Assembly: GCA_049510745.1 (NCBI GenBank)
Contig: JBEKYR010000023.1
Location: forward strand, 1 to 64,000
DNA: 64,000 nucleotides
Direction of reading: 5' to 3'
Source of the DNA: Verrucomicrobiota bacterium
GTDB lineage: Bacteria; Verrucomicrobiota; Verrucomicrobiia; Limisphaerales; Palsa-1400
A program made the position numbers and the translations under genes. A model generated the notes under the pieces. It saw nothing but the letters and a program-made list of their open reading frames with translations. It was not told the DNA's origin and did no database searches. Below, piece after piece: positions 46,697 to 64,000 of the stretch (the stretch's first letter is position 1; each line of letters starts with the position of its first letter).

Positions 46697-46698
46697 GA

Positions 46699-47532: not shown

Positions 47533-47606
47533 GCGGCGCCGCAAACTCTTGACCTTCCGCCGCAACCGGTCAAGCCGCGACTGTTCACCGGAATCTCCCC
47601 TCCATT

Positions 47607-48356: not shown

Positions 48357-48361
48357 AAGAA

Positions 48362-48400
48362 GAAATAGTTGAGGATTGAATCAGTGAATGGGTGAATGGG
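48362..48400. repeat. AATCAGTGAA element E1 (half element)
   Basis: aaatagttgaggattgaatcagtgaatgggtgaatg. Confidence 0.75.
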
Positions 48401-48599
48401 CGCGCTCGGCCTGCCAGCAGGGGCGGAATTGGAGTTGAACTCTCCCGTCGTATTCGCGCCGGAGGGCGGCGTGGGCTTCTTCGGTGAATTCGAGCCAGCC
48501 GCCGCCGGCCCAGCGCCCGCGGGCCAGGCAGGCTTCCACGTAGCCGGGCTTTCGCTCGGATTCGATCTGCAATAGGTGCTCGATGTGGGTGCGTCTCAC
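48381..48599 (-). CDS. Small phage hypothetical protein
   Basis: GTG overlaps the upstream TGA; ERKPGYVEACLARG...AHAALRREY. Confidence 0.6.
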   Translation of the reverse strand: MRRTHIEHLLQIESERKPGYVEACLARGRWAGGGWLEFTEEAHAALRREYDGRVQLQFRPCWQAERAHSPIH

Positions 48600-49393
48600 G
48601 GGGGATCGGAGTAGTTGTTCGTCGAGCCGCTGACGGCGCATTGGACGGTGTCGTCCCAGTCGCTGTCGAAGATGACGGTGACGCCGGTTCCGCAAATGGT
48701 GCTGGCCATCGTGGTGGCGAAGTCGTCGAGCAAGGCGGAGATGTCTGAGCCGTCGCCGGCGTTGCGCATGGGGACCCAGAGGCCGCGCAGGATGCCGGCT
48801 TTGCAGATGCCGCCGCAGGGTTGGATGATTTCGCCGTCCATTGGCTGATGGATGATTTGCTGGAGGCACGGACCGGAGGCGCTGCCTATGCAATGGAGGG
48901 GGAACGTGCCCCAGCAGCCTTCCATTGCGACGATCCAGTTGGCGTTGCGAGGCTCGCAGTTGCCGGCCTGCGGGCAGGGATCGCCGCCGTAGCAGGGGCC
49001 GTCCGGGTCGCCGCTCCAGTCGCCGTAGGCGTGGATTTTGACGGCGACGACGTTGCAGGGACCGGTGATGAGCCAATCGACGATGCCCATTGTGCCGTCC
49101 GGGGAAAACCAGGAATTGTTGCAGGAGTAATAGCCGAGGCCGGCGAAGGGGGCGCTGACGCTCGTGGGGGAGCCGGAAGTGTCGGTGAAGGTGGCGGTGA
49201 TGGTGTCGCCCCAGGGGATGGTGGACATGTCGAAGGCGTTGCCCCATGCGATTTCTTTGGCGTAGGTGTCAGACGGATTGTTCAGGCCAGTTCCGTAGGG
49301 GACAATAGAGAGGGTCCGGGTCTGGAAAAGATTGGGGGCGCCGGGGAAGCCGGGGTAAACGTAGCGGTTAAAGATGTTCTGAATAGTTGGCAC
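48596..49393 (-). CDS. Cys-rich putative tail/virion protein
   Basis: 265-aa ORF in the operon with many Cys and Gly. Confidence 0.65.
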   Translation of the reverse strand: MPTIQNIFNRYVYPGFPGAPNLFQTRTLSIVPYGTGLNNPSDTYAKEIAWGNAFDMSTIPWGDTITATFTDTSGSPTSVSAPFAGLGYYSCNNSWFSPDGTMGIVDWLITGPCNVVAVKIHAYGDWSGDPDGPCYGGDPCPQAGNCEPRNANWIVAMEGCWGTFPLHCIGSASGPCLQQIIHQPMDGEIIQPCGGICKAGILRGLWVPMRNAGDGSDISALLDDFATTMASTICGTGVTVIFDSDWDDTVQCAVSGSTNNYSDPP

Positions 49394-49402
49394 GATCAGG
49401 GC

Positions 49403-49545
49403 AAAATAGTTGAGGTTTGAACCGGAAGTAAATTAGTGAAGTTTGAATGAGTGAATGCCATGAATGCTGAATTCAACAATTCACTGATTCTCACTTCACT
49501 GATTGTTTTCAGTTCACTGATTCTCACTTCACTGATTGTCTTCAT
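49403..49545. repeat. AATCAGTGAA/TTCACTGATT palindromic element E2
   Basis: Inverted arms; 49418-49543 differs from 57295-57420 at 8 of 126 positions (manual). Confidence 0.92.
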
Positions 49546-49997
49546 GCGATGCTTGTCGTGTAGAATTCCGAGCAGACGATGAGGCGATAGCCGGGGGTCA
49601 GGACGCCGTCCACGATCTGGCAGGAATCGATTTCGCGCAGGGTGATTTTGTGGGTTTTGCCGTTCAACATGCCGATGGAAATGGTGATGCTGCCTTTGAG
49701 TGTGCCGCCGGCGCCATCCTGGAGGTGGATGGTGGCGCCGGCGGGAGCGCCTTTGACTTCGGGATCGGAAGAATCGTTGCCGTAAAAGGGCTGGCCGCTG
49801 GGGCGCAGATCGAGCGTGATGCCGGGGAAGGCGGCGTTGGTGGCGGTGTAGGCGCTGGAGTAGGTGAGCGAGTCGCCGAGGTTGGTGTGGAAGATTTCGA
49901 CGGCGGGAACGCGGGCGCCGGCGCTGGGGCCGCGCTGGGCGACGTTGGCGGGGGTGTCAACTGCGATGTTTTGGCCGGGGCCGGTGTTGGGTGACAT
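49542..49997 (-). CDS. Putative tail protein
   Basis: MSPNTG... with C-terminal ITLREIDSC...LIVCSEFY. Confidence 0.6.
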   Translation of the reverse strand: MSPNTGPGQNIAVDTPANVAQRGPSAGARVPAVEIFHTNLGDSLTYSSAYTATNAAFPGITLDLRPSGQPFYGNDSSDPEVKGAPAGATIHLQDGAGGTLKGSITISIGMLNGKTHKITLREIDSCQIVDGVLTPGYRLIVCSEFYTTSIA

Positions 49998-50000
49998 AAG

Positions 50001-50092
50001 ACAATCAGTGAAGTTTGAATCAGTGAATGGATGAATTGGGGAGGGGGCTTCTGACTGCCCCATTCATCAATTCACTGATTCTTCTATTCATA
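50001..50092. repeat. Palindromic element E3
   Basis: aatcagtgaa x2 ... ttcactgatt. Confidence 0.9.
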
Positions 50093-50095
50093 ATT

Positions 50096-51133
50096 TCAGA
50101 TCAGATAGTACCATCTGGGGCCGCGGTTGGCGCGGAGTTGCTCGGCCAAATCCGGCGCGCCCAGGTGCGGGGGCGGCCCGAAGTTCAACGTCGTGCGCCC
50201 GGCGAGCAGGTCGTAGGTGACGTTTTGAATGCACGCGGCCATTGTGGTCCATTCCGCATTGGCGCTGTTGATGATGTTGAGGTTGTTTCCCAACGGGCAG
50301 AGGTCGGTGACTTCGGCTTCTTGCAAGCTGACGCTGCCCTCGTATTGCGGGGCTTTCTCGATATTGTAGATGAAGCCGGCCAGGCCGTAGGGGACCACTT
50401 CGGCGGCGGCGGCTTGGGCGTAGGTGCCGGCGGCAAGCTGGCAAAGAGTACAGCGGGCGTGTTTTTCGTGGAAGGCGACGCTGCCTTTGGTGAGGGCGCC
50501 GGCGGGAGTTTGAGCGTTTTCGGTGTAGGCGAAAGAACCGATGATGGTGGCTTGTTTGGCGAGTGGGTTGCCGCTGGTGATCGTGTTGGCCAGCCAGGTC
50601 GGGATGTGGGGATCGAGGAGGAAATAGCCGTATTGGCCGGCGCTGCTGCCAATCTCCGAAGTGATGTCCGCGCCCGTGTCGTCAAGGACTTTGAAGCTGG
50701 AGCCGGTGTAGGTGGCCAGGCTCGACACGTTTTGGAATTCGGGCCAGAGCGCCTGGCACATGGCGAGCGTCGCGCCGGAGAGCGTGCCGGTGGACAGGCC
50801 GATGGCCTGCGAGGTGACGTTGACGGCGAGCGTATTGACGCCCTCGAAGTCGAGGGTGGCCATTTTCGCGCCGAAAGTGCGGCCGTTGGTCTGGAGCGTG
50901 GTTTGAGTGCCGCTGTCAAGATAAGTGCTGGGCGCGGAGATGAAAGTGGCAATGTTGCAGAGCGCGCCGGTGGCGCCGACGCCTTCCCGCGTGACGCCGG
51001 CGATGGTGGTGGCCACGTCGTTGATGACCTGGACGTAAAGGTTGTTGTTGTATTTCGACGTGACCCGGTATTTGAGGTGGACGCCCGGGGGAATGAGGTC
51101 GTCGCGGCGCTTGATTTTTAAGTCAAAAATCAT
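50096..51133 (-). CDS. Putative tail hub/baseplate protein, C-terminal part
   Basis: YEGSVSL...IQNVTYDLLAGRTTLNFGPPPHL; start at MIFDLK after the repeat. Confidence 0.65.
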   Translation of the reverse strand: MIFDLKIKRRDDLIPPGVHLKYRVTSKYNNNLYVQVINDVATTIAGVTREGVGATGALCNIATFISAPSTYLDSGTQTTLQTNGRTFGAKMATLDFEGVNTLAVNVTSQAIGLSTGTLSGATLAMCQALWPEFQNVSSLATYTGSSFKVLDDTGADITSEIGSSAGQYGYFLLDPHIPTWLANTITSGNPLAKQATIIGSFAYTENAQTPAGALTKGSVAFHEKHARCTLCQLAAGTYAQAAAAEVVPYGLAGFIYNIEKAPQYEGSVSLQEAEVTDLCPLGNNLNIINSANAEWTTMAACIQNVTYDLLAGRTTLNFGPPPHLGAPDLAEQLRANRGPRWYYLI

Positions 51134-51136
51134 AAG

Positions 51137-51279
51137 GCAATCAGTGAAGTCTGAATCAGTGAACTGGAAACAATCAGTGAAGTCTGAATGAGTGAATTGA
51201 TGAAGGGGGCAGTCAGCGCGCTGCGCGCGATCCGGCATTCATGGCATTCACTGATTCTGACTTCATTAATTGGGTTCAT
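51137..51279. repeat. Palindromic element E4
   Basis: aatcagtgaa x3 ... ttcactgatt; long arm is the reverse complement of the E9 long arm. Confidence 0.92.
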
Positions 51280-51284
51280 GCGGA

Positions 51285-52193
51285 TCAGGTGGCGCTCACG
51301 TTCACGCTGGGCAGTTGGTCGCGCGTGGTCACTTTGAACGTCGGGGGCGTTGTGGTGTAGTCGAACCAGGCGACGGTGCTTCCCACGTAGCCGAGCCATT
51401 TGAACATGTAGCGCAGGGCTTCGGCGCACGTAACATCATTGACGGCGTCGAGCGGGGCGCGCAACAGCGTGCGGGCGTCGGCTGTGCCGCTGGATTGGCC
51501 GCTGGCGGCGTAGCCGGCGATGTAATCCGGGATCAGGCAGTTGGGGCCGGGCGCGAGGAGGAGATCGTAGTTGACGCCATCGACGGCGTTGGTCAGGCCG
51601 TCGAATTGAAGTTGCGGGCTGCCATAGGCGGCGGTGGTTTGGGCGATGACATAGGCGACGATTTCCTTCACTTGCTGCGAAATGGTCATCAGCGTGGTGG
51701 CGGCCACGCCGGGGCAGACGGCCCCCGGCGTCGTGTTGGCATAGACGCTCAGGCCCAGGATGACGGCGCTGCGCCAATCGGCCACAAGCTGGCTGCCGTT
51801 CCACGTCCACCAGAGCTTTTGGAAGACGAGGCGCTCGAAGAAAAATTCCCACGGTCCGGCGAATTTGTAATCGAATTTTTCAAGTTGGGCGCTGCCGCTG
51901 CGGAGGTTGGCGACGCGGTAGCCGACGAAGAAGATCGTGCCGCCGGAGAAGGAGGTGAAGCCGCTGCCGGGCAAACCGCCAGGCAATGAGACGCCCCCGG
52001 CGGCCGTGCGGTTGCGGCGGATGGTGATTTTCGTGCCATAGGGGAAAGGGTCGGCGGCGTCGGCCGGGGTAATGAGGGAAAAGGCGAGATTGTCGCCGGC
52101 CTGGTTGTTGGCCTGGCGGCGGGCGGACTCAATGCGGGCGTCTGCGAAGGTCATTTCGGATCCGCCAGCAGCTTGGATGGTCCAATAGGTCAT
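51285..52193 (-). CDS. Putative tail hub/baseplate protein, N-terminal part
   Basis: IFFVGY, YKFAGPWEFFFERLVFQ, WFDYTTTPPTF; operon position. Confidence 0.65.
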   Translation of the reverse strand: MTYWTIQAAGGSEMTFADARIESARRQANNQAGDNLAFSLITPADAADPFPYGTKITIRRNRTAAGGVSLPGGLPGSGFTSFSGGTIFFVGYRVANLRSGSAQLEKFDYKFAGPWEFFFERLVFQKLWWTWNGSQLVADWRSAVILGLSVYANTTPGAVCPGVAATTLMTISQQVKEIVAYVIAQTTAAYGSPQLQFDGLTNAVDGVNYDLLLAPGPNCLIPDYIAGYAASGQSSGTADARTLLRAPLDAVNDVTCAEALRYMFKWLGYVGSTVAWFDYTTTPPTFKVTTRDQLPSVNVSAT

Positions 52194-52195
52194 GG

Positions 52196-52290
52196 AAAAA
52201 TAGTTGAAGTCTGAATCAGTGAATCAGTGAATTCTGAATTCATGGCATTCACTGATTCACTGATTGTGACTTCGCTAAATGGGGTTCATG
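52196..52290. repeat. Palindromic element E5
   Basis: tgaatcagtgaatcagtgaa ... ttcactgattcactgatt. Confidence 0.9.
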
Positions 52291-52292
52291 GT

Positions 52293-54776
52293 TCAATAAA
52301 TGGTTCCGGTGAAATAGTGGCCGAAGCTGCCGCTGCCGCTCATGGTGACTTGCAGATCAATCCAGGCGTTCGTCAACCATAAGAGTGCCGCGCCGTTGGT
52401 GACTCCTGATTGTCCGGCATAGGCGGCCAGCGCGCTGTTCGCCATCGCACCGGTGCCGTTGCCGTTTGTTCGCAAGGTGAAAACAAGATTGCTTCCCGCT
52501 AAAAGACTCGTGCCTTCCGCCAAATTGAACGTCGAAACACAAAAAATCCCGGGAAGAAACACCGACACGTTCGTTTCAGCCGCCTGGCCGTTCGCAACAG
52601 GGCCAGTCGGCGGATACCAGCGCGTCGTTGAGGTCTGAGTTTGCCCAAAGACACCAAAATGAAGGATCGTCGAGAAGCTGGTGTTGGTCAGGCCGTTGAT
52701 GACGTTGGTCCAGCCGTTCGGGCCGCCGATGTTGGTGGCGGTGGCGCTGAGATCAACATGGGTGGCGTTTGTCAAGACGATGTTGGTGCCGTTGTTGGCC
52801 GTGTTGGTGCTGCCGGTGGCGCCAACAGTCCAGGTCAGGCCGCCGTTGGTCACCGTGATGAAACCGAGGCTGGCCGTGCCCCCGTTGGTATCGACTATAT
52901 TCAGGTTGTTGGTCGGAAACTGAACCGAAGCGGCGGGGATCGTGCCGCTCAGGTTGGCGGCGTTGAGACTGGTCAGGCCGGAGCCGGAGCCGTTGAAGCT
53001 AACGGCGCTCAGATCGCCGATACCGTCCGATGAAATCTTGTAAAGGCTCCCGCTCCAATCGGCCTGAAAGCCGCCGTCCATTTGCATCGGAGCGCCGGTG
53101 TGCAGGCTCGCACCGCCGCCGTTGTTGTCAAGAGTAACCGTGGTGCCGGCGGATTTGAGGACCAGGGCGCTGTTCTGCTCGTAGCCGTTGGAGATGACGA
53201 TGTTGGTGAAGCTGTTTGGCCCGGTAAAAGCGTTCGTTCCCGCCAGACTGGCAAAGCCGTTGGTTTGCAGCGCGTAATTTGTGCCGCGAATTTCCGTCAG
53301 CAAATTCGTGCCGTCCGTCACGATCCGCAGGTTGCATCCGGCCGGGAGCGAAAAGTTGGTCGTGCCGTTCATCCCCTGGAAGACCGCGTGATCCGCCGTG
53401 CAAATCTGCACGCTATGAGGCCCGTTGGTATCGACCCGGAATATGTTCCAATCCAGCGTGCAGTAGGCCGGGCCTTTGCTCGCGCCGTCCCGCACGAATG
53501 TCCAGGCCGGCTTGGTCTGCGTCGTCTCCCCGAAATGCCCCAGCGCCGGCAGCGTGATCTGGATGTTGTTGGCGATGGCATCGGCGAAAATGTAGCGGTC
53601 CGCTATATCGGCGGTGTAATTGGCCGCGATGTTGGTGAAGCCCCACCACTGTTTGGCTGCCTGGATGCTGCCCATCGGGCCGGCGACGACGGAATACCAG
53701 TTGCTCGTGCCCCAGACCACGAATTGATCGTTGGAAAAATTGATCCCGGCCGGGGAGTAAATATCCATCGTTTCCTGACTGCTGGTTTGCGGCGGAGCCG
53801 TGATTTGCACAAAGCCGTTTGTCATAACCAGAAGCTGGCCGGCTCCGTTTAAATAGACCGGCAGATAAAAGATCGCGCCGTTGGTAAAGTAGGCCGTTCC
53901 TTGCACATCGACATTGCCATTGTTGTCCAGCGTGATTCCGGCGTTGAACGAGTTTGCATTCACGTCGGAGGAGTATTGGTTTAGCAGCGTCACCGGCGCG
54001 TCGTTCGTCAGCGTCAAGCCGACCGCCCCGCCGCTGAGGGTGACACCGGCCGCCATGATATTCGTGGTGTTGACGGTGCCATTGACCGTTAGATTGCTGC
54101 CAACGGTAATGGTGCCGTTGGAATTGATGTCCAGGGCGAGAAAGGTGTTGGTGGAGTAGATGCGCCAATCGCGGCTGGAAACCGTTTCGTTCCAATCGAC
54201 GCCGAAGGGGAACTCAAAGTTGCGGATGACGAACTTCTGGCCGGGCATTTTGTAATCGTAGGCCAGATAAGCGTTGCCGGCGTTGGTGAAGGCAATGAGG
54301 ACGCAGTTGGTCCAATAATCATTGCCGGTATTGTGGCCCGTGGTCCCCGTGATATTGAGGCCGTCCAGGAAGGTCAGCGGGTTCAGGTCATTATTGGTGA
54401 CGACGCTGTTGGTCAGGCTGATCTGGCCGAGGGAATTGGTCGCAACGAAATTGGGATCGTAACTGGCCGGCCCGCCGCCTCCCCCGCCGCCGCCGGATGC
54501 GGCCACAGCCTGGTTCAGAAGATTGCTGTTGGCGGCGAAAAAGTTTGTCTCATTGGGCGGCAGCGTGTTGTTCGTATTGACCACGAACACTTTGTTGGTG
54601 CTGACACTGGCGCCGGGAGACGGCAGGGCAATCAGTGAAGTTAGAATTAGTGAAGTCAGAATCAGTGAATTAGTGAATAGGGACAATGCGAAACTCATCA
54701 ATTCACTGATTCTCACTTCATTGATTGTTTCTCGTTCACTGTTTCTCAATTCGCTGATTTTTTTCATAATTTTCAT
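52293..54776 (-). CDS. Large Thr/Asn/Gly-rich fibre- or adhesin-like protein with a repeat-encoded signal peptide
   Basis: 827 aa, FTGPNSFTN and FNGSGSGLTSLNAANLSGT fibre-like motifs; N-terminus overlaps element E6. Confidence 0.75.
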   Translation of the reverse strand: MKIMKKISELRNSERETINEVRISELMSFALSLFTNSLILTSLILTSLIALPSPGASVSTNKVFVVNTNNTLPPNETNFFAANSNLLNQAVAASGGGGGGGGPASYDPNFVATNSLGQISLTNSVVTNNDLNPLTFLDGLNITGTTGHNTGNDYWTNCVLIAFTNAGNAYLAYDYKMPGQKFVIRNFEFPFGVDWNETVSSRDWRIYSTNTFLALDINSNGTITVGSNLTVNGTVNTTNIMAAGVTLSGGAVGLTLTNDAPVTLLNQYSSDVNANSFNAGITLDNNGNVDVQGTAYFTNGAIFYLPVYLNGAGQLLVMTNGFVQITAPPQTSSQETMDIYSPAGINFSNDQFVVWGTSNWYSVVAGPMGSIQAAKQWWGFTNIAANYTADIADRYIFADAIANNIQITLPALGHFGETTQTKPAWTFVRDGASKGPAYCTLDWNIFRVDTNGPHSVQICTADHAVFQGMNGTTNFSLPAGCNLRIVTDGTNLLTEIRGTNYALQTNGFASLAGTNAFTGPNSFTNIVISNGYEQNSALVLKSAGTTVTLDNNGGGASLHTGAPMQMDGGFQADWSGSLYKISSDGIGDLSAVSFNGSGSGLTSLNAANLSGTIPAASVQFPTNNLNIVDTNGGTASLGFITVTNGGLTWTVGATGSTNTANNGTNIVLTNATHVDLSATATNIGGPNGWTNVINGLTNTSFSTILHFGVFGQTQTSTTRWYPPTGPVANGQAAETNVSVFLPGIFCVSTFNLAEGTSLLAGSNLVFTLRTNGNGTGAMANSALAAYAGQSGVTNGAALLWLTNAWIDLQVTMSGSGSFGHYFTGTIY
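54630..54759. repeat. Palindromic element E6 (in frame in the CDS N-terminus)
   Basis: Encodes ISELRNSERETINEVRISELMSFALSLFTNSLILTSLILTSLI. Confidence 0.9.
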
Positions 54777-54777
54777 C

Positions 54778-55422
54778 TTAGTAGCCTTGGTCAGACAGTT
54801 GCGCCGTAAGCACCCCGCCGTCGTTCAGTACGGCCAGCGTGTGATAAAGGCCCGTCGTTGTGTCCAGCAATTGCGGCACGATCTGCCCGGCGACGCTGTA
54901 AAGGCGGAACCCCGCCAAAGGCGGCGCGCTGGCCGTGCTGATCGGGCCGTCTTTGACCATGATCGGACCGTTCAAAAGCGTGATCGTCTTGGGCGTGCCA
55001 TCCGTGGTCTGCGCGGTGATGCGCAGCCAATACCCGATGGTCGCCTGGCCACTGAGGCTGACGCCCGTCTGGCTGTTGGGGAAGACAAACGCCGCGTGAT
55101 AGAAGGGCGCGCTATTGTTGGTCCACTCGCTTTGCGTGAGCGAAAGATTCATGTTCGCCGCCAGGACCGTGCCACTCATCATCGGCGCATTGCTGTCGTT
55201 TTCCGCCGCAAACAGTTGGCAGGTGACGGACGCGATCCCGCCCGCCCCGGCCGAAGCCAGGCCGGTGAGCAGGCTGCCGCCCTGCCCGATGCCGATGTCG
55301 ATTTCAACGTCGTCTCCGCGAAAGAAATAGGGCGCGGCGCTGCGATTGAGATCGAGCAAGTTTTGCGGCGCCGCCAAGTCGCAGAACAAGCGGATGGGCA
55401 GGGGGGTAAGGGGAGTGCTCAT
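54778..55422 (-). CDS. Putative baseplate upper/fibre-attachment (BppU-like) protein
   Basis: FFRGDDVEIDIGI...YWLRITA...ITLLNG; start at MSTPL. Confidence 0.55.
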   Translation of the reverse strand: MSTPLTPLPIRLFCDLAAPQNLLDLNRSAAPYFFRGDDVEIDIGIGQGGSLLTGLASAGAGGIASVTCQLFAAENDSNAPMMSGTVLAANMNLSLTQSEWTNNSAPFYHAAFVFPNSQTGVSLSGQATIGYWLRITAQTTDGTPKTITLLNGPIMVKDGPISTASAPPLAGFRLYSVAGQIVPQLLDTTTGLYHTLAVLNDGGVLTAQLSDQGY

Positions 55423-55429
55423 AGCAACA

Positions 55430-55565
55430 TAATCAGTGAAGGTTGAATTAGTGAACCGGCAATAATCAGTGAAGTGAGAATCAGTGAATTGATGAATGGG
55501 GCAGTCAGTTTCCATTCGGCATTCACTGATTCCCTGATTCTTCTATTCATTGATTGGGTTCTCAT
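55430..55565. repeat. Palindromic element E7
   Basis: aatcagtgaa x3 ... ttcactgatt. Confidence 0.9.
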
Positions 55566-56026
55566 GGGCTGTTTTGCCACGGCCCGTTGCCGCAGATGGC
55601 GTAGGTGACATTGCAACTCAGCCCCTGGTGCTGGGCGCACTCGACGCTTTCGACCACCGCATTGGGCAGGTAGCGGACGATCACCCCGGTCGTCGTCTGG
55701 TTTTCCAGCTTGACCCCGCCCTGGGCCGGGACGTTGTCCGGGTGCCCGGCGATAAAGGCCAGGCAATCTTCAACCGCGCTGAAAGAGCGTTGCACGGTGA
55801 ATGAAAACCGGTTCTCCAGATTGTAGCGCGGCACGGCCAGCGCATAGGCGGCGCGGAAAAGATGGGTCTTTTGCACCAGCCGCTTTTGCCGGTTGACAAA
55901 CCCCTCCTTGTTTTGCCCGCCCGACCCGGACGCCAATTGCGGATTGGGCAAAACGACCCGCACCGAATCATCCGCCAGGATGAACGGCGTCGCGCCGGCG
56001 CCCGATGGGGTGAGGGTGATCTTCAC
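55562..56026 (-). CDS. Putative distal-tail-like protein
   Basis: 154-aa beta-rich ORF after the tail tube gene. Confidence 0.5.
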   Translation of the reverse strand: MKITLTPSGAGATPFILADDSVRVVLPNPQLASGSGGQNKEGFVNRQKRLVQKTHLFRAAYALAVPRYNLENRFSFTVQRSFSAVEDCLAFIAGHPDNVPAQGGVKLENQTTTGVIVRYLPNAVVESVECAQHQGLSCNVTYAICGNGPWQNSP

Positions 56027-56031
56027 AAGCT

Positions 56032-56137
56032 AATAGTTGAATGAGTGAATCAGAGAATCAGTGAATGCCGAATTCATCAATTCACTGATTCAAACTTCAC
56101 TGATTATTTCCGGTTCACTGATTCTGACTTCGTTAAT
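56032..56137. repeat. Palindromic element E8 (overlaps the 3' end of the 68-aa ORF)
   Basis: aatcagtgaa ... ttcactgatt x3. Confidence 0.9.
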
Positions 56138-56310: not shown

Positions 56311-56343
56311 ATGCTTTCTGCTTTCTGCTTTCAGTTTTTGTTT

Positions 56344-57276
56344 TTACGCCAGAGCCAGCGCGGGGGTGGCCGGCGCCCCGCCGGCGGCGATGGGCAGCGT
56401 GCTGACCCAGCCCAGTTCCCCCAGCCGCAACGGTTTCCCGCCGAAGACATACCCCGCCGTCTTGAGCGCCGCGTTGCCGATCGTCACCGTCATATTGCTG
56501 CTGCCGGTGATGACCAGGTTGGCGGAATTCGTTGACAACCGGTAGCCCCCGGCCGCGCCGGTTCCCTGCGCGTAAAGCGCGGCGTCAATCTGCGCCATCG
56601 TCGGCCCGAGCGGTTTGCACTTGGCCATCGCCCGGTAGCTGACCAGTTTGAAAGCCCGCGTCCGGCCCTGGATCGTGATCGCTTCCAGCTTCAACTCGTG
56701 CGAGAGGGTCCACTTCTCTTGCGCCTGAAAACTACTGAAGCCCGCCACGCTTCCCCAAGCCGCGGTAAACTCCTGCCGTCCCAGCACCGCCGTCCCTGGC
56801 ACAGCCGGGTTGGCATAACTCTGCCCCGTCGCCAGCGTGTAATAGGCGTTGGCGTGGCTCGGGTCCTCGGTATTGGCGATCACTCCCCAAATCTCCATCC
56901 GCCCAAGCACCGGGCCATCGACGCCCAATTCCAAATCGGGCATCTTTCCGATCAGCGCGCTGCTCAACGTCACCACGTCGCCGTTGTTGGAATTCCACGC
57001 GCAGGGAACATCGCTCGAACCGGGATATGTCGTGCCAATCGCCGCCGCCAGGTAAGGAAACAGCGTCGCGATCTGCGCCGTGTCATAAAACAGCGGCCGC
57101 CCGCTCGCCTTGACGATCAGGTCCTTTTCGATCTCGTCCGCCTCCCCATAGAGCGCAGTGGAAATCACATCCGTGACCAGCGCCGTCGCCACCGAAGAGT
57201 CTTCGGCGAACTGGATGTTTTTGGAGTTAAAGGCCGCGTAAGCCGGCCCGCCCGTGAGTGTGGATCGTGTTACCAT
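56344..57276 (-). CDS. Putative major tail tube protein
   Basis: About 310 aa, beta-rich, directly after the neck genes. Confidence 0.6.
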   Translation of the reverse strand: MVTRSTLTGGPAYAAFNSKNIQFAEDSSVATALVTDVISTALYGEADEIEKDLIVKASGRPLFYDTAQIATLFPYLAAAIGTTYPGSSDVPCAWNSNNGDVVTLSSALIGKMPDLELGVDGPVLGRMEIWGVIANTEDPSHANAYYTLATGQSYANPAVPGTAVLGRQEFTAAWGSVAGFSSFQAQEKWTLSHELKLEAITIQGRTRAFKLVSYRAMAKCKPLGPTMAQIDAALYAQGTGAAGGYRLSTNSANLVITGSSNMTVTIGNAALKTAGYVFGGKPLRLGELGWVSTLPIAAGGAPATPALALA

Positions 57277-57287
57277 AAAACAATAAT

Positions 57288-57428
57288 TCAAGTCTGAACC
57301 GGAAGAGAATCAGTGAAGTCTGAATGAGTGAGTGCCATGAATGCTGAATTCAACAATTCACTGATTCTCACTTCACTGATTGTTTCCAGTTCACTGATTC
57401 TCGCTTCACTGATTTTCTTCGGGTTCAT
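57288..57428. repeat. Palindromic element E9
   Basis: Near-identical to E2. Confidence 0.92.
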
Positions 57429-57436
57429 CGGGTTTG

Positions 57437-58156
57437 TTATGTGACTGTGAAAGTATCGACCATGCTGCCCTGCAAGGTCCCATTGTAAGCGGCCACGCGC
57501 ACCACGGTCCCGCCCGCAACGGGAAAGGGAACCGAATAGAGGACGGCATTCGGGTTTCCCGCCCCGGGAAAACTGCCGTCCGTTGTGTAATAAATCGTGC
57601 TGCCGCCGCCGGGTTGTTGATCGGCCAGCGTCACGGTTCCGGCCGCGGCGGATGCCGCGGGCGCCAGGGTCCGCGTCAACGCTGTCAAGACGAACGTCGC
57701 CTGCATCGTCACTTGCATCGCCACAAACGGCGTCTTCCCGCCCGTCTCCATCCGTTCGTAAAACGGCGAGCCGGCGTAGAACCCCTGCAGCGGGCCTCCG
57801 AGGAAAAACAATTGGAACGTCTGCGCCAGGTTGACGGCGATCTGCTCCAGGCTCAACCCCGTGCCCCGCGCCCCGTTGTTGACCGTCTCCTGCGTCTTGA
57901 CGATGAATCTCTGTTCCAGCGTGCAGACCGGCCCGGGTGTGTTTGGCTCGGCGCTCTTGAGGGTGGGGAAAAAAACTTCAATGGTGGCGCCGCCTTTGCC
58001 ATTGCGCCCGGCCAGCCCGGCCAGCGCCTGGTTCACTTCCGTGTCCAGCCGCTTCTCGCGCACTTTGAATATGGCGATGTTTTGAAAATACGGCTCGGAC
58101 AGCAGCTTGTAGTAAACGTCCGGCTGCACGCTTTCGATTTGCGCCGCTAAACTCAT
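57437..58156 (-). CDS. Putative neck/tail-terminator protein with a C-terminal FN3-associated (chitobiase C-terminal-like) Ig domain
   Basis: TIYYTTDGSFP...LYSVPF...VRVAAY motif. Confidence 0.65.
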   Translation of the reverse strand: MSLAAQIESVQPDVYYKLLSEPYFQNIAIFKVREKRLDTEVNQALAGLAGRNGKGGATIEVFFPTLKSAEPNTPGPVCTLEQRFIVKTQETVNNGARGTGLSLEQIAVNLAQTFQLFFLGGPLQGFYAGSPFYERMETGGKTPFVAMQVTMQATFVLTALTRTLAPAASAAAGTVTLADQQPGGGSTIYYTTDGSFPGAGNPNAVLYSVPFPVAGGTVVRVAAYNGTLQGSMVDTFTVT

Positions 58157-58599
58157 GTTTCCCCCAGCGTGTCAAAGTCGTGGGTCCGCACCTCGTGGCC
58201 CCGCCTCACCGTTTCCACCCGGAAGCTCGGACCGGTCACATTCTGCGCCGCGGCCGGAATCTCCACTTTTTCCTTCCCGTCCCGGATTTTCTCCATCCGC
58301 TTCTGCGCCGTTTCATATTGGGCCTTTCTGAATTCGCTTTGCAGGTCCGTCTTCGGCAGGCTGCAAAACCACCGCCAGCGCACGATCGCTATCGCATCCC
58401 CGCGAATCTGGTCCGGGACCGTGCCCGATGCGCCGATCTGATTTCCTCCCACCAGTATCTGCGCCTGCAATTCGGCCAGGACCGTGGCCAGGATCGCGCT
58501 CAGTATCGTGTCGCTTCCCTCGATGGTGTTCAGGGCGGTGACCTCATCCGGGAGAATCTCGGCGGTCACATCGGTCGTTGCAAGCGTGTTCCAAGGCAT
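58153..58599 (-). CDS. Mu gp36/DUF1320-like head-tail adaptor
   Basis: MPW...TVPDQI...AIVRWR...RKAQYETAQKRMEKIRDG pattern; follows the capsid genes. Confidence 0.65.
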   Translation of the reverse strand: MPWNTLATTDVTAEILPDEVTALNTIEGSDTILSAILATVLAELQAQILVGGNQIGASGTVPDQIRGDAIAIVRWRWFCSLPKTDLQSEFRKAQYETAQKRMEKIRDGKEKVEIPAAAQNVTGPSFRVETVRRGHEVRTHDFDTLGET

Positions 58600-58605
58600 G
58601 GGAAG

Positions 58606-58697
58606 AAATAGTTGAAGTTGGAATGAGTGAATTAGTGAATGGAAAAGTCAGTGGCTTCGCCATTCAACAATTCACTGATTCTTTTATTCATTTGATT
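58606..58697. repeat. Palindromic element E10
   Basis: aaatagttgaag...gagtgaattagtgaa...ttcactgatt. Confidence 0.85.
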
Positions 58698-58755
58698 CTT
58701 TTGTGTTGCGCCGGCGTGCCAGGACTGTGGAACGCGCCGGCGCCGTTTCAGTCGC

Positions 58756-59322
58756 CTACGGCGTGACGGTTTGGAGGAGCGTCACCCAGATGTTTGAGGC
58801 GGCGCCCCCGGTCGTGGCGCTTCCGCCATTGACGATGCTGTAGCCGAGACTTGTCGCCGGCTCCCATTGGCTTGCCAGCAGGTTGGTGCTCGCCGTCTGG
58901 TTGGTCGTGTAGCCAATCGTCCAGACCAACACCGGCGTTTGGGTGAAGTTTGTCCCATACCGCCCGTTGAGGGAACTGGCGTTGCCTCCCCCGGTGTCGT
59001 AGGCCGGATAAACGGTGATGACAAGGTTGCTGGAAGCCGCAAATTTGTTCGTATTGACAATTTGCGCGACCAGCCCGATGGCGTGGGTGCCGCTGAACGG
59101 AATGAACGTGTTGGTGAAGCAATACACGTTGGTGTAGCCGGGCCCCGCCGTCGGCAGCGCCGCGTTGGTCAGGAGAGCCTGGCCGTTGCTCACTACCACG
59201 CTGCTCAGCAGGGTGTATTGCCGCGGCAGGACCTGGGTGGTCGCCTGTCCGAAGAGAAGGCTGAAGGATGAAGGCAGAAGGATGAAGACCGCCAGCATCG
59301 CTGTTTTGATGGAGTTTCTCAT
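58756..59322 (-). CDS. Secreted Thr/Asn-rich protein inside the virion operon
   Basis: Signal peptide MRNSIKTAMLAVFILLPSSFSLLFGQ, partly encoded by a GAAGGAT-type heptamer tract. Confidence 0.75.
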   Translation of the reverse strand: MRNSIKTAMLAVFILLPSSFSLLFGQATTQVLPRQYTLLSSVVVSNGQALLTNAALPTAGPGYTNVYCFTNTFIPFSGTHAIGLVAQIVNTNKFAASSNLVITVYPAYDTGGGNASSLNGRYGTNFTQTPVLVWTIGYTTNQTASTNLLASQWEPATSLGYSIVNGGSATTGGAASNIWVTLLQTVTP

Positions 59323-59379
59323 AGGTGTTTCGATTTATCGTGTTGACTTCTTACTTCTTAATTCTTGCTTCCGCCTTTC

Positions 59380-60438
59380 CTAATTGATTTGGACCTGCTG
59401 AATCCCCGTCGTGTGCTGCACGTGCAGGTATTCGTAGTTCTCCACCGTCAAGGCGATGAGCTTGACTCCAATGTCAGTAATATAGACGGCGTATTCCCCC
59501 CCGCCGTAGGCCGCGTTGGAGACGTGCCGCACCACGTTGCTCGCGTCCATCGGGCCGTCCGCCTCGATGGTCGTGAACAGCAGCACGTTGCTGCCGATGA
59601 TCTCCTGCTTGGTCGTCCCGGCCGATTGCTGATACCGCTCCGCATTGAACAGGCAGCGGTCCACGCCGATGGCCGTGGCCACCTGCTCCTCGGTGAATTG
59701 GCCCGCCCGCGCCAGCGCGCCGGCGTTCAATTGCGACTCATACGCGTTCTGCCGCTTGAGCGCCGCCTGGTCGCCATAGACCGCCACCAACGGGTAAAAT
59801 CCCGTCGTGTTGGCCAGGTTGATGATGTCCTGTTTCAATTCCAGGTCCGGATTGCTCCCCGCGTCCCACGTCGTGCTCGAGACAATCGCGCTGGCCTCGA
59901 TCAGCGAAACCGCTTCCAGCACCGTCGCCCGCATCATCAGGTCGATCAGCCATTTGGTATGCACTTGCTGCCACTCGGGCTTGTCTTTGAGCTGGTCCCG
60001 GTCAAGAAGAACCGTCAGTCCCCGGTTGGGCACTTGCAGGTCCACCTTGCTCGCCGCCCTCTGCCGCACCCGCATGAAGTCGGCCAGGACGCCGCGCTTG
60101 ACCCTCGTGGCATCCACCGTCTGCCACGGTTCGTTCTCGTCATAGATCGTCAGCCGGATGATCCGGCTGTTGCTCGGCCGCGGCGGCGCCAGCAGGTCGC
60201 GCAACTGCCGCAGCCGGTTGCCCACCATGCCGTCGTAGCTGATGGCAAAAGTGGTCAATTCCTCGATGTATTCCGACTGCCGCAAAAGCGAGTCGTTCGC
60301 CAGGCAGACCTGGCCGTGATGCGCCCCGAGGTTGTTGGAGGCGATGGCGTTGGGGGCAAAATCGTTGCCCAGGGCAACGCCCAGGTTTTCAAGGGCGGCC
60401 TGCCGGGCCGCGTTGGAAAGGGCAATGGGATCTTTCAT
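59380..60438 (-). CDS. Putative major capsid protein
   Basis: 352 aa after the protease and decoration genes; EELTTFAI...NRGLTVLLD...SNPDLEL. Confidence 0.75.
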   Translation of the reverse strand: MKDPIALSNAARQAALENLGVALGNDFAPNAIASNNLGAHHGQVCLANDSLLRQSEYIEELTTFAISYDGMVGNRLRQLRDLLAPPRPSNSRIIRLTIYDENEPWQTVDATRVKRGVLADFMRVRQRAASKVDLQVPNRGLTVLLDRDQLKDKPEWQQVHTKWLIDLMMRATVLEAVSLIEASAIVSSTTWDAGSNPDLELKQDIINLANTTGFYPLVAVYGDQAALKRQNAYESQLNAGALARAGQFTEEQVATAIGVDRCLFNAERYQQSAGTTKQEIIGSNVLLFTTIEADGPMDASNVVRHVSNAAYGGGEYAVYITDIGVKLIALTVENYEYLHVQHTTGIQQVQIN

Positions 60439-60470
60439 AATTTCAAATTTCTCTTCTGGAAGTTTATTGT

Positions 60471-60989
60471 TTACGCCGGTGTGCCGTAGCTCAGCGTGCC
60501 GCCCGTCACCGTTACCGCGTAAGGGGCGACCGCAAGAAACGTGATTTCCTGCCCGGCCGCCGCCACCGTTTTGGTCGCCCGCCCGATCACCCAATAGGTG
60601 CCGTTGGCCGCCGCCGTCACATCCTGCACCTGCCCGCTGGCGGCGGCCCCGACTAGGTGATCGATCGCAATGGCTCCGGCGCTCATGCCCAGTTGGGTCC
60701 CCTTGATCGCGCCGAATCGTTCCACGTCCAGAAAATCGCCGCTCTGATACGGCGCGTCCGGCGACGTCCCCAGCGGAAAGCTCGCCGCGTCCCCCACCGC
60801 TGCGTAGTATTGACCCGATCCCCGCTTGTAGATCAGGTACCGGCCCGCAACGGGAAGCGTTGCCGCGGGATCGATCTGCAGCGTTTCCCGCCCGCTATCG
60901 AACAGTCCCCCCAACTCGTTGGCCAGGGCGGTTGCCCCCGCCGGGACGGGATGGAACAGACGACAAATGTATTGAAGCATTTTTTTCAT
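60471..60989 (-). CDS. Putative head decoration/capsid cement protein
   Basis: AGAIAIDHLV.AAASGQV...WVIGRA...AAAGQEI pattern. Confidence 0.7.
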   Translation of the reverse strand: MKKMLQYICRLFHPVPAGATALANELGGLFDSGRETLQIDPAATLPVAGRYLIYKRGSGQYYAAVGDAASFPLGTSPDAPYQSGDFLDVERFGAIKGTQLGMSAGAIAIDHLVGAAASGQVQDVTAAANGTYWVIGRATKTVAAAGQEITFLAVAPYAVTVTGGTLSYGTPA

Positions 60990-61056
60990 AATTTTCTTTT
61001 CTTTGCGCTCTTCAGGTCCCCCGCGGCTTTGGCGGCGGCCGAGGCGCTTTCTGTGG

Positions 61057-61287
61057 TTAGGTTTTCTTGGTAACTTTGTTTTTGCGGTCGTCGTATTCAC
61101 GCTGCCGCCGCAGTACGGCGGCGGCCTGCTCACGACGCAGTCCCTTGTTCATTTTTTCCGCGATCAGGATTTCGTCCGCGGCCGCTTGCTCTTTGGCCGC
61201 CTCGAATACGGCGAGGCGCGCCTTGAGGGCGGCGTTTTCCGCGGCCAGATCCGGACCGGCGGCGGGGATGGGAGTTTCTTTTGGCAT
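61057..61287 (-). CDS. Small phage head-region protein
   Basis: EKMNKGLRREQAAAV helical ORF in the operon. Confidence 0.6.
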   Translation of the reverse strand: MPKETPIPAAGPDLAAENAALKARLAVFEAAKEQAAADEILIAEKMNKGLRREQAAAVLRRQREYDDRKNKVTKKT

Positions 61288-61317
61288 GATTTTCACTTTG
61301 GGGTTCGTTGTTTGGAG

Positions 61318-62481
61318 TTACAGTTGACTGCGAACTTTGAGCTTTTCGGCCAGACCCGGCTCCTTTTTCATGACCGCGTGATGCGCCTTGATCGGGTCCG
61401 TTTCGCTCGTTTCTTTCATGTGCTTTTCCACCGCCGCGCAGTATTCCTCGCGGGGATCGCCCCCGGCCCCGTGGTTGGCGAGTATCTTCCCGCTCTCCGC
61501 GTTGCCGGCCGTTTTGAACTTCGTGGCCGACCCGAGCAGCGCCGCGGCGTCCCGCTCGAAGTCCGCCGCGTTTGCCAGCCCCTGGATTCTTCCCGCCCGC
61601 TCCGCCACCGTCAGCTTGCCGCGCGCGATGGCCAGGTCCGCCACCGCCGCGGCCCGCCCTTCGCGCTCGGCCGCAACCCGGCATTTGAGGGCGGCGTTCT
61701 CGTTCTCGAGGACCACTCCCTTGGATTTCAATTCGGCGTTCGCCCCGTCGAGGGCGGTATTCTCGTTGCCCAGGGCCGCCACTTCGCCGGCTTTGGCGTC
61801 GTGGAACCTTTGCAGGGCCTCGAGAACCTGCGCTTCGCTCGGCGCTTCGGCCTCGGCCACGGCCACGCCGTTGGCCAGCAGCCAGCCTGTGATCAGTTTC
61901 ATATCTGGTTCTTTCGTTGCTTCTTTTCTCTCGGCGCCCCGGGCGTTCGCCAGGGATTCCACGCCGGAAATGTTCGGATGCGGCGTCAGGCCCGCCGATA
62001 AAAGCTTGAACGGCCGCGCCACCACCGCGTCTCCCCGCCGCCCCACCGGCATCACATACCACAGCGCGCTGGGATACTTGTGCCCCTGCTTCTCCACCGC
62101 GTCCGCCCCGGCTGGTGTCAATACAAAATGCCCCTCCAAACCCCGCCGGCTTTTGCGCACCCGGTCGATCGCCCCGATGATCTCCTTCCGCTCCGCCGTC
62201 CCTCCTGTCCCCGCCTCGTAATCCCGCAAGTCCGGATGCCCCTTATAGACCGGGATGCCGACCAGGGCGCGCCGGAGCCGCCGGAAGAGCGAGTTCTCGC
62301 GGGACAAAAGCTGGTCCGCCGACTCGTTGTCCAGCACCTGGATGAATTTCTCCTCGCGCAGCGCCCCGTTCTTCTTGACCAAACGGGTTTTCGGATGCTC
62401 GCCGAACGGCGCGATCAAGGCCCAGCCCTCCTCGTCCAGCGCCGCGTCGTTGCCTAATATGAGATCGATCTCGGTGTTCAT
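61318..62481 (-). CDS. Mu gpI-like prohead protease/scaffold
   Basis: IAPFGEH, PVYKGHPD, YPSALW, LSAGLTPHPNI, followed by a coiled-coil scaffold region. Confidence 0.8.
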   Translation of the reverse strand: MNTEIDLILGNDAALDEEGWALIAPFGEHPKTRLVKKNGALREEKFIQVLDNESADQLLSRENSLFRRLRRALVGIPVYKGHPDLRDYEAGTGGTAERKEIIGAIDRVRKSRRGLEGHFVLTPAGADAVEKQGHKYPSALWYVMPVGRRGDAVVARPFKLLSAGLTPHPNISGVESLANARGAERKEATKEPDMKLITGWLLANGVAVAEAEAPSEAQVLEALQRFHDAKAGEVAALGNENTALDGANAELKSKGVVLENENAALKCRVAAEREGRAAAVADLAIARGKLTVAERAGRIQGLANAADFERDAAALLGSATKFKTAGNAESGKILANHGAGGDPREEYCAAVEKHMKETSETDPIKAHHAVMKKEPGLAEKLKVRSQL

Positions 62482-62491
62482 GGAAAAAACC

Positions 62492-63991
62492 TCAATTCTC
62501 CCCCTTGCCGGTTGCCGCGGCGGACCAGAAATTCGCCGCATCCACCTGCGCGTCCGGCAGATTCGGACTGGCGCTTTGGGGCATGGAGCGGGGATCGGCG
62601 CCGGAACCTATCGGGGTGGCGTCGGTGGTCACGGCGCGCTGGGCGGCGGGATCGGAAGAAATGGGGGAATCAGTGAGTTTTGAATCAGTGGATTGTTGAG
62701 GTGAAAATGGCGGCTTCGCCGGGTTCTTCCCATTCACTGATTCTCCATTCGCTGATTCACTGATTGCGGTGACGGGGGCTACCAGGCACGGCTCGCCGGC
62801 CTGGGGGGCTGTCCAGCGGAATCGCTTGTAAGCTTCCGCCAGGCTGATGCGCAATCCCATCGGCGCCAGCGTTTGCACGCTTCGCAGGTCCATCTCGGAC
62901 GTGTCGTCCAGCGGCGGCACCACCGCCATCCAGGCGCGCGGCTCACGGTCAAACAAAAATCGGATCACCGGCCGGTCCAGCCGTTCGTTCAGGTACCCCG
63001 TCGCCCAGGCCGCGTCCCGCGCCAGAAAAATTCCCGACTCCTCCTTTTGCACGCTCGCCCCCACTGCCGCCCGGCCCTGGCCCGGCTCCGTTGCCCGGCT
63101 CCCCGTGGCCAGATCGATCCCCCGGTAACACTTGGCGTAAAGCCGGTTCACGTGCTCCACCAGCGGCTCGAACGGCAACGCGCTCTTCGCCGGCGTCTCC
63201 AGGAATTTCAGCGTCACCCCGCGGTTGTGCAGCACCACCCCGTCGTTGGCCATCCGCTCCAACGCCTCCCGCGCCTCCTCCCACGCCGGATCGTTCCTTT
63301 GCGCGTCCGTTATCCCCTCCAGAAATCCGCTCCCGTACCGGCTGCAAAACACCATCCAGTCGCGCAAGGGAAAGTTTTTCAGGACATAGGCCATGCTCAA
63401 CGGCCTCATCCAGCCGCTTCCCACGCACGTGAGCCATTCCCCTTGGAGACAAGGCTGGCCGTAAACGTCAAATATATGTTGAAGATAACCCAGGTAGCCC
63501 CGCCGGCTCTCAAAAAACCACACCGGCGTGTGCCGCAATTCCGCCGTCGCTTCCCGCGCCGCCCCGTTGTCTATCCGCAGCAGAATCTCATGCACGCTGT
63601 AATAATACGAATGGGCGCTGGCCATCTGATGAAGCAATTCGCTCACCCCGCCCGCCACGTCCTGGTCCAGCGCCCGCGTCACCCGCAGGTTCCGGTAAAA
63701 ATAGCTCAGCGCCGCCGCGTGCTCGTCCCCTTCCGCGCTGCCGTCGGATACGATCTTCCAGTCCAGCCCGGCCAGGTCCCCCGCCCGCTTGTCCGCGTTG
63801 ACCGCCAACTCCCCGTCCCGCTCCATCATGATCTCCCATATCTTCCCGATCACCCTCAGCTCCCCGATCCGAAACGCGTTCAGGTTCGCCGCCACCCACT
63901 TCGTGTTCAATTCCGGCATCGGGCTGTAGCGCAGCCGGATCGCCCACTCGATCCGCGCCTGATTAAACTGGGACTGCCCGGTCGGGTTCAT
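62492..63991 (-). CDS. Mu gp29-like portal protein (DUF935-like)
   Basis: MMERDGEL...KR...LDWKI, YSVHEI, DWMVFCSRYG, LNERLDRPVIRFLF. Confidence 0.8.
   Translation of the reverse strand: MNPTGQSQFNQARIEWAIRLRYSPMPELNTKWVAANLNAFRIGELRVIGKIWEIMMERDGELAVNADKRAGDLAGLDWKIVSDGSAEGDEHAAALSYFYRNLRVTRALDQDVAGGVSELLHQMASAHSYYYSVHEILLRIDNGAAREATAELRHTPVWFFESRRGYLGYLQHIFDVYGQPCLQGEWLTCVGSGWMRPLSMAYVLKNFPLRDWMVFCSRYGSGFLEGITDAQRNDPAWEEAREALERMANDGVVLHNRGVTLKFLETPAKSALPFEPLVEHVNRLYAKCYRGIDLATGSRATEPGQGRAAVGASVQKEESGIFLARDAAWATGYLNERLDRPVIRFLFDREPRAWMAVVPPLDDTSEMDLRSVQTLAPMGLRISLAEAYKRFRWTAPQAGEPCLVAPVTAISESANGESVNGKNPAKPPFSPQQSTDSKLTDSPISSDPAAQRAVTTDATPIGSGADPRSMPQSASPNLPDAQVDAANFWSAAATGKGEN
62667..62765. 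repeat. Palindromic element E11 (in frame in the portal C-terminus)
   Basis: Encodes ISESANGESVNG...STDSKLTDS. Confidence 0.85.
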
Positions 63992-64000
63992 TTTTCCCCC

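Follow-up and report, generated by a model that had tools for sequence, protein, structure and literature searches.

The 64,000-nucleotide stretch analysed here, referred to as the window, is the first part (positions 1 to 64,000) of contig JBEKYR010000023.1 of a Verrucomicrobiota bacterium (GenBank assembly GCA_049510745.1; 5.63 Mb in 85 contigs, 94% complete). We designate this genome G000, its relatives by other G numbers and contigs by C numbers, the window contig being C23. The right-hand part of the window holds an operon of Mu-like particle genes, all on the minus strand, that is punctuated by eleven palindromic elements (E1 to E11) built of short tandem units. The operon begins with a Mu-type portal gene (62492-63991), whose promoter-like dyad lies just outside the window at C23 64087-64101, and continues with the genes for a Mu-like head maturation protease (61318-62481) and the probable major capsid protein (59380-60438), a 188-amino-acid (aa) gene (58756-59322) whose signal-peptide-like leader is encoded by a GAAGGAT 7-mer family (units at 59263 and 59277), and the gene for a Mu gp36-like head-tail adaptor (58153-58599); the portal, protease and adaptor were assigned by family matches. 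The distal genes of the neck and tail region (47607-58156), mostly without a family match, are syntenic in relatives, and an element lies at nearly every one of their junctions.

The unit that defines the elements is the 10-mer AATCAGTGAA or its reverse complement, and a scan of both strands of the window gave 35 exact matches. All of them lie between 48379 and 62765; the mean expected by chance is 0.05, with a maximum of one in 100 shuffles. The copies fall into eleven clusters, ten with an inverted left-arm/right-arm layout and one, E1, a half copy. The left arm is purine-rich and the right arm pyrimidine-rich in 10 of the 11, the arms are A+T-rich tandems, and the elements end in AAT...ATT. 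Nine elements lie at gene junctions, E6 and E11 lie in frame within genes, and sub-blocks are shared between elements in both orientations, while positions 1-47600 of the window contain no exact or degenerate unit. A sequence-only reading of the window had reported about 35 copies in eleven two-armed elements with E1 as a half copy, no such array in the 47 kb of host sequence, nine elements at junctions and two in frame, and sub-blocks in both orientations; the counts agree with it on each of these points, and E8 was found in addition to encode the final codons and stop of a 68-aa open reading frame (ORF).

All of the elements read on the minus strand, like the genes. E1 (48364-48400) consists of a right arm only. 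E2 (49405-49538), two-armed and gene-less, and E9 (57285-57416), also two-armed, are near-copies of each other at separate junctions, and the long arm of the two-armed junction element E4 (51138-51270) is flipped relative to both. E3 (50002-50092) and E7 (55430-55552) are likewise two-armed and at junctions, and E5 (52199-52275) is the most regular element, with a 19-bp stack. E6 (54629-54760) forms the N-terminus of an 827-aa ORF, the pyrimidine-rich arm encoding the hydrophobic core of a signal-peptide-like leader. The two-armed E8 (56032-56135) overlaps the end of the 68-aa ORF (56104-56310), the two-armed E10 (58607-58700) has been added downstream of a conserved GC-rich hairpin, and E11 (62661-62766) lies in the variable C-terminal part of the portal gene. 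Signal-peptide-like N-termini are present on several genes of the phage-like set in all of the relatives read (58756-59322, 52293-54776 and C10 at about 73000-73350), and in a number of lineages the hydrophobic core of these leaders is encoded by a pyrimidine-rich repeat arm, in G000 by E6 and the GAAGGAT 7-mer. The joins across E5, E6, E8, E10 and E11 are identical, with zero differences, in contigs of independent samples that bridge these five elements, and an assembly artefact was therefore ruled out.

The elements belong to a family that extends well beyond the operon. The genome holds 133 exact copies of AATCAGTGAA, 98 of them on other contigs, which leaves the earlier proposal of an operon-specific layer unsupported. 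A degenerate pattern identified 64 multi-unit clusters genome-wide, including 17 inverted pairs, 10 of which are in the operon. Many other tandem families with units of 6 to 10 nt are also found in this genome; other dense "repeat" windows, on C6, C44, C2 and C1, turned out to be protein-coding repeats. On contig C53, arms identical in type to those of the eleven bracket a 129-aa ORF for a four helix bundle protein (TIGR02436, E 9.5e-22; closest solved relative 2RLD, with five chains), and the right arm of this cassette aligns nearly letter for letter with that of E5. Of the genome's six PF05635 genes, five are clearly flanked by inverted arms, with a separate unit for each gene, and the sixth has repeats downstream only. 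Since arms around a TIGR02436 gene are the layout of the ORF-bearing intervening sequences of 23S rRNA, the eleven elements are best read, from their sequence, as gene-less derivatives of a small hairpin cassette, in its 8-nt GAATCAGT subtype.

In G009, a four-helix-bundle cassette with AAGAATT arms (locus L181, on C103) lies directly before an ATP synthase alpha-like gene, so housekeeping operons also take such cassettes. G000 has four PF13366 (GxxExxY-type) genes, on C4, C6, C12 and C29, plus a fragment, and 9-mer repeat families are abundant in it; its one reverse transcriptase gene is not linked to the elements.

The concentration of the 8-mer elements in the operon is pronounced. Among junctions between confidently called, co-directional genes with gaps of at most 300 nt (a rule that leaves the junctions around the 68-aa ORF outside), an 8-mer was found at 9 of the 15 in the operon, whose junctions are A+T-rich, and at 3 of the 2175 elsewhere; for any short repeat the figures are 10/15 and 85/2175. 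No other run of ten junctions has more than three 8-mer elements. Within the operon, the first five head genes have none at their four junctions. Genome-wide, 29 of the 64 clusters lie within 600 nt of phage-system features, compared with 1.3 at random (24 of 67 compared with 0.83 when the BLAST step is left out). Two GAAGGA-type 7-mer families are also enriched at these features (12/42 and 8/30), and four other 7-mer families are not (0/38, 0/18, 0/17 and 1/35).

The same elements appear in trans at terminase loci. G000 has four large-terminase paralogs and a fragment, and in three of the four an 8-mer element sits in frame in one loop. These paralogs are old, with an identity at fourfold sites of 0.46, near saturation, between the C10 copy and each other copy and of 0.69 between those on C22 and C8. 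The C10 insert is best matched by E8, flipped, and by a copy after a host gene, and the C22 insert, which has a loop block in common with E7, matches the C8 insert and E7 about equally; given the age of the paralogs, these similarities point to copying between loci. With regard to a miniature inverted-repeat transposable element (MITE), the elements have imperfect inverted ends, and the three inserts show by eye no consistent target-site duplication, the empty sites available for comparison being from diverged relatives only. Among 13 terminase loci fetched from relatives, 10 have an intact comparable loop (the other three are split, frameshifted or too distant). The loop carries the lineage's own repeats in five of these 10 (6-mers in G006, inverted 7-mers in G011 and G016, 9-mers in G001, and in G017 the repetitive extragenic palindromic (REP) sequence of its own operon) and is short and non-repetitive in the other five. 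The suggestion that a selfish element tracks this operon is thus supported and extended, from 9/15 junctions against 3/2175 in cis to in-frame copies in three of four terminase paralogs.

How stable is this arrangement in relatives? The portal gene identified a single locus in each of 10 among 40 relatives (68-83% identity), these 10 being of the same family, together with two distant matches. The operon gene order is kept in relatives, and AATCAGTGAA has no copy in the 12 loci (ten orthologous operons and the two distant ones), and the 19-nt tandem is present in only 1 of the 40 relatives. Orthologous junctions instead hold 7-mers in G009, G001, G002 and G017, 9-mers in G009, G017 and G024, and REP-like palindromes in G017, G024 and G012, with short spacers only in G020 and G004. 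In G009 and G011, the repeats of the phage locus match the arms of the same genome's own four-helix-bundle cassettes. Within the head protease gene of G009 (locus L012, 4247-4674), 142 codons form an in-frame mosaic in which 7-mers, 9-mers and a REP-like palindrome are combined. Pattern counts in relatives, given as the share that falls in the operon locus (3/9 in G009, 3/15 in G017, 3/12 in G001, 1/14 in G002 and 0/22 in G006), are not counted as tests because the patterns were picked from the loci themselves, and a family-blind test replaced them. This test compared operon junctions of nine relatives with junctions in 40 arbitrary 20-kb stretches, G015 being left out because its contig ends early. 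Periodic arrays were found at 7 of 95 operon junctions and at 2 of the 254 control junctions. When long stems are counted along with arrays, the figures are 20/95 and 21/254. G002, G020 and G004 scored zero, and in G009 the gene caller scored only 3 junctions.

As hairpins of the mRNA strand, E2 to E11 are more stable than 100 dinucleotide shuffles (z -2.7 to -8.3), with stacks of 7-19 bp, so the earlier description of long hairpins holds for these ten and fails for the half copy E1 (z +1.5). The covariation check that the sequence-only reading had proposed gave no support for a conserved structure: 0 of 20 pairs in the consensus fold of the eleven elements show a compensatory change, a test that is weak because the core is nearly invariant, and left arms pair with their own right arms no better than with foreign arms (p 0.82). 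In 13 of 14 cases the antisense strand gives the more stable fold; the sense strand does so in only one. A scan of positions 46000-64000 against Rfam gave no match near the gathering score, three sub-threshold microRNA matches being taken as chance hairpin matches, and a scan for sigma-70 promoters and terminators returned counts equal to those of shuffles, with none inside the elements. The sole conserved RNA element seen in the operon is the GC-rich hairpin after the head genes (58709-58744, minus strand), which has a similar counterpart in 9 of the 9 relatives whose locus reaches this junction.

Five elements had been described as ending in TCAACTATT 5-13 nt before a start codon. All five do, at distances of 7, 11, 5, 5 and 7 nt from the starts at 48356, 49393, 52193, 56026 and 58599. 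Of 27 genomic copies of TCAACTATT, nine are element ends, each at the sense-strand 3' side (9/9); six of the nine are followed by a start, two lie in the middle of terminase genes and one is without a downstream start. A translation signal was accordingly rejected as the primary meaning of TCAACTATT, with 9 of 27 copies linked to elements and 3 of these 9 having no start behind them, and it is the 3' end of the element rather than a start signal. It may have a secondary role in keeping the start region unpaired: TCAACTATT weakens the outer stem and would therefore free the start region, which would represent an accommodation. Genome-wide spread, turnover between relatives, the lack of covariation and the weaker fold in the mRNA sense together make a conserved stoichiometry code in the junction elements unlikely. 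The earlier inference that the elements set virion protein stoichiometry is not supported, since the ten orthologous operons hold no copy, some junctions are empty and no compensatory change was found.

We give a probability of about 0.55 to the reading that the elements are selfish, gene-less hairpins that spread by copying or conversion between short arms and accumulated in the operon where their cost is low. The identity with the cassette, the lineage-specific expansion, the exchange of blocks in both orientations, the concentration in the regulon, at this operon, three terminase paralogs and copies of the regulon promoter, and the keeping of reading frame are all observed. In its loaded form, which the genome has on C53, the cassette carries a four-helix-bundle gene (S23p/TIGR02436) flanked by short units in inverted arrays; as selfish DNA the elements would spread by copying or gene conversion via short homologous arms. 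Inserts would be cheap in the operon because the regulon is presumably silent in most cells and the distal genes are needed in low copy, provided that an insert keeps the reading frame and leaves an unpaired A/U-rich tail before the next start. Cutting by RNase III, if any, would be a side effect and not a conserved code.

Several observations weigh against this reading. No mobilising enzyme or dedicated transposase was identified, and the silence of the regulon is an assumption. In contigs of four other samples, which could miss rare variants, no presence/absence polymorphism was seen and no join skips an element. A scan of genome contigs for a 20-nt tandem of the 8-mer found at least 109 loci in many phyla. 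Among the matches listed, only 4 of 109 have a four-helix-bundle ORF in the flank that was fetched, which was 700 nt long for 80 loci and about 300 nt for the others, so that the gene-less state is the common one among them. In a Cyclobacteriaceae locus, one of the four, an arm lies on each side of the gene, and in one Verrucomicrobiota locus an arm pair with no gene is set between ordinary genes. Tolerance alone leaves it unexplained that phage-system features are enriched in the 8-mer and in two GAAGGA-type families and not in four other 7-mer families, and in G009 the head-gene junctions have been invaded too. The enrichment counts are non-independent, and the operon was chosen because it is rich in elements. 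Finally, when the insert is left out, the protein tree fails to reject a single insertion in an ancestor shared by the three terminase paralogs (AU, approximately unbiased test, p 0.36), and repeated conversion of one old insert is therefore possible.

It is conceivable that selfish inserts of this kind are now kept as processing sites, with RNase III cutting the 16-kb mRNA into pieces that differ in stability so as to lower the output of tail genes relative to head genes and any available hairpin serving the purpose. The genome has an RNase III gene, the stems contain stacks of 7-19 bp, the elements are mostly downstream of the head genes, and unrelated hairpins occupy the same distal junctions in several relatives. 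Passages in PMC4990558 describe a precedent, the 23S rRNA intervening sequence of Coxiella burnetii, which has tandem heptamers in its terminal stem and is cut by RNase III at the first repeat. We nevertheless regard this explanation as unlikely, since relatives G020 and G004 lack hairpins at all scored junctions (0/8 and 0/12), the mRNA-sense fold is the less stable one in 13 of 14 cases, compensatory changes number zero, and in-frame copies in the portal and terminase genes would be cut destructively. A doubtful explanation, which we rank after the processing sites, is that the particle itself drives the spread: induced loci would be transcribed, cut and recombined, hairpins would be copied in, and particles would carry the edited DNA and promoter-terminase relics to sister cells. 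The association in trans with three terminase loci and 10 promoter-linked clusters fits such a process, as do the 25 regulon promoter copies here compared with 1 and 3 in two congeners and the tendency of lineages (G000, G017) to share a repeat between operon and terminase. Against these stand the facts that the system is known from genes alone, with particle, packaged DNA and induction all presumed, that relic copies are not independent events because they were duplicated along with their flanks, and that near-identical elements also lie beside host genes (C63).

Regulation by a cognate protein appears improbable to us. The four-helix-bundle protein, a member of a pentameric ring family, would bind the 8-nt-periodic RNA arms and control translation or processing of the regulon. 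One cognate gene with matching arms exists in the genome, five chains make up its closest solved relative (2RLD), the Xanthomonas homologue is a homopentameric toroid in the account given in parts of PMC4990558, cassette arms and phage-locus repeats form cognate pairs in G009 and G011, and TCAACTATT is at the sense-strand 3' end in all nine element-linked cases. The repeat type, however, varies even within the genus, REP-like elements without such a gene occupy the same junctions in G017 and G024, several relatives are without any repeat, and the literature searched yields no binding data for the four-helix-bundle family. Least credible of all is that the elements are debris in a dead prophage. 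A high repeat load, probable capsid frameshifts in G002 and G017 and broken terminase paralogs speak for it. Against it, all operon genes are open with inserts in frame, the pooled ratio of nonsynonymous to synonymous substitution rates (dN/dS) is 0.16-0.25, four genera have the set in single copy, and the operon and the terminase module share a promoter dyad in six relatives. In a wider reading than that of selfish hairpins tolerated by the operon, which we favour, a domesticated Mu-derived particle regulon would serve as both breeding ground and vehicle of palindromic repeats in this verrucomicrobial family. Four-helix-bundle-type hairpins, REPs and promoter-small-terminase relics would be copied in during induction and spread by particles, and some would be reused as mRNA cut sites, ring targets or signal peptides, in which the purine arm would supply the charged part and the pyrimidine arm the hydrophobic core. 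We hold this wider proposal to be rather unlikely, placing it ahead of the processing sites.

The nature of the operon itself bears on these questions. The product of 59380-60438 was placed among capsid proteins by a language-model search, the commonest phylum of the nearest named cluster being Verrucomicrobiota, and it is 84-92% identical in most relatives and 68% in one. The capsid gene is found in 11 of 26 genomes of the family, in four genera, as part of a single-copy set, and the dN/dS value, pooled against four relatives, indicates purifying selection. Host-type genes flank the operon on the window contig, and no transposase or integrase was seen beside it; one weak match to the Mu transposase C-terminus (E 7e-4) lies on another contig of the assembly, which is 94% complete, and the Mu gp27 family PF11985 has no match in the genome or in controls. 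A separate module on contig C10 contains a lipase gene, a weak holin-like match and a large-terminase gene. Upstream of both the portal gene and this module, here and in six relatives, there is a dyad motif with a TGTG box after it. Single-copy occurrence, purifying selection, the shared dyad promoter and the separate packaging module fit a domesticated Mu-derived particle, and the operon is a candidate gene transfer agent, judged from its genes. Two findings count against a gene transfer agent: the upstream neighbour of the operon differs between genera, and the capsid gene has probable frameshifts in two relatives, G002 and G017.

Several side observations concern the packaging module and its promoter. 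The lipase is of class 3 (C10:73436-74287), is found in the lysis/terminase module here and in most relatives, and is possibly a lysis helper. In the congener G001 (C98:25778-36087), whose capsid is 68% identical, the terminase module lies directly upstream of the portal gene, which may be the ancestral unsplit state or a separate acquisition. The regulon promoter motif has 25 copies in G000 (C23:64087-64101 and 24 other sites), and exact matches number 1 and 3 in two congeners. About 20 of the 25 are intergenic relics of about 500 bp, most of which combine the promoter with the end of a small-terminase-like gene and with 10-nt AAATCCGG repeats, and 14 of the 20 face the next host gene (by eye, genes like those of trigger factor, SecA and CysS). 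The relics could be pac-like sites or could place host genes under the particle's activator. The small-terminase label itself comes from a weak PHROG match (E 0.02) and gene position. Five small-terminase-like paralogs (C8:69225, C8:114419, C22:40492, C29:62724 and C70:13119), also weak PHROG matches, each end in or precede a particular 10-nt tandem repeat whose unit is as long as one helical turn; of these 10-mer families, three are spread over 15-27 clusters. A second repeat of promoter-like form contains two TGTTA-N5-TAACA boxes and has three copies, one at the start of the window (297-356), one before the C22 terminase paralog (C22:42854-42913) and one at C3:209073-209132.

The locus touches on two open questions: by what route small palindromic repeats spread when they have no transposase, and what function the very common four-helix-bundle genes have. 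It offers a compact test set, with one cognate gene, 11 hairpins within a single operon and a terminase loop that in five relatives is filled with their own repeats, and a candidate Verrucomicrobiota gene transfer agent is by far the strongest sink for such repeats in this genome. If the particle does spread repeats, this would be a new route of repeat evolution; if it does not, the locus cautions against reading junction hairpins in phage-type operons as regulation. The literature covered (few subscription papers, no supplements) contained no description of gene-less four-helix-bundle arrays, of a verrucomicrobial gene transfer agent or of repeats concentrating in such a regulon.

Among known systems, the ORF-bearing intervening sequences of 23S rRNA (S23p/PF05635/TIGR02436) are close to the C53 cassette, which shares with those described in passages of PMC4990558 a long terminal stem of short tandem repeats around a four-helix-bundle ORF. 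The terminal inverted repeats of E2 to E11 form a long stem in the same manner, E1 being a half copy. In contrast to intervening sequences and the C53 cassette, the eleven elements have no ORF; they lie in mRNA junctions and coding loops, not in 23S or 16S rRNA, and combine a unit of 8 nt with blocks of 7 and 18 nt. REPs, with their composite forms REPIN and BIME (bacterial interspersed mosaic elements) and the associated RAYT (REP-associated tyrosine transposase), are, as portrayed in parts of PMC3733652, abundant in the verrucomicrobium Opitutus terrae and similarly dispersed, lineage-specific intergenic palindromes that are sometimes in frame. In G017, repeats of the GTAG type are found at the same junctions as the elements and in the same loop of the terminase. 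The eleven elements differ in having no GTAG/CGTC tag and in having A+T-rich tandem arms instead of a short GC stem. Of seven Y1 transposase matches in the genome, two have single-arm clusters a few hundred bases away (C3 47618 and C8 62320), and none was seen bracketed by two arms, no closer look at the flanks having been taken.

Repeated signals at junctions of phage-type operons are familiar from the RNase III sites of the T7 early region and from mycobacteriophage stoperators, which are conserved in their phages. Unlike these, the eleven elements show turnover inside a single genus, are palindromes and not oriented operators, and belong to a genome-wide family, and the orthologous operons, which hold other repeats or none and not the same motif at the same junctions, do not show the pattern of a phage mRNA processing or operator code. 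The layout of the operon has its counterpart in gene transfer agents of the RcGTA (Rhodobacter capsulatus gene transfer agent) type, which combine a single-copy head-tail cluster under purifying selection with packaging and lysis genes at a separate locus and a shared promoter motif. The operon described here, known from genes alone, has that layout and no transposase or integrase seen beside it, and it differs in its Mu-type portal and protease, its several terminase paralogs and the signal-peptide-like leaders on some of its genes. The STRR (short tandemly repeated repetitive) sequences of cyanobacteria, heptamer repeats reportedly treated by Vioque in 1997, have short tandem units set in inverted arrays and settle where a hairpin is tolerated, as the eleven elements do; the units and the phylum differ, and we know of no link between STRR sequences and a phage-derived regulon. 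In their parts, the elements resemble intervening sequences, REPs and STRR repeats, and as a whole they belong to neither of the first two classes.

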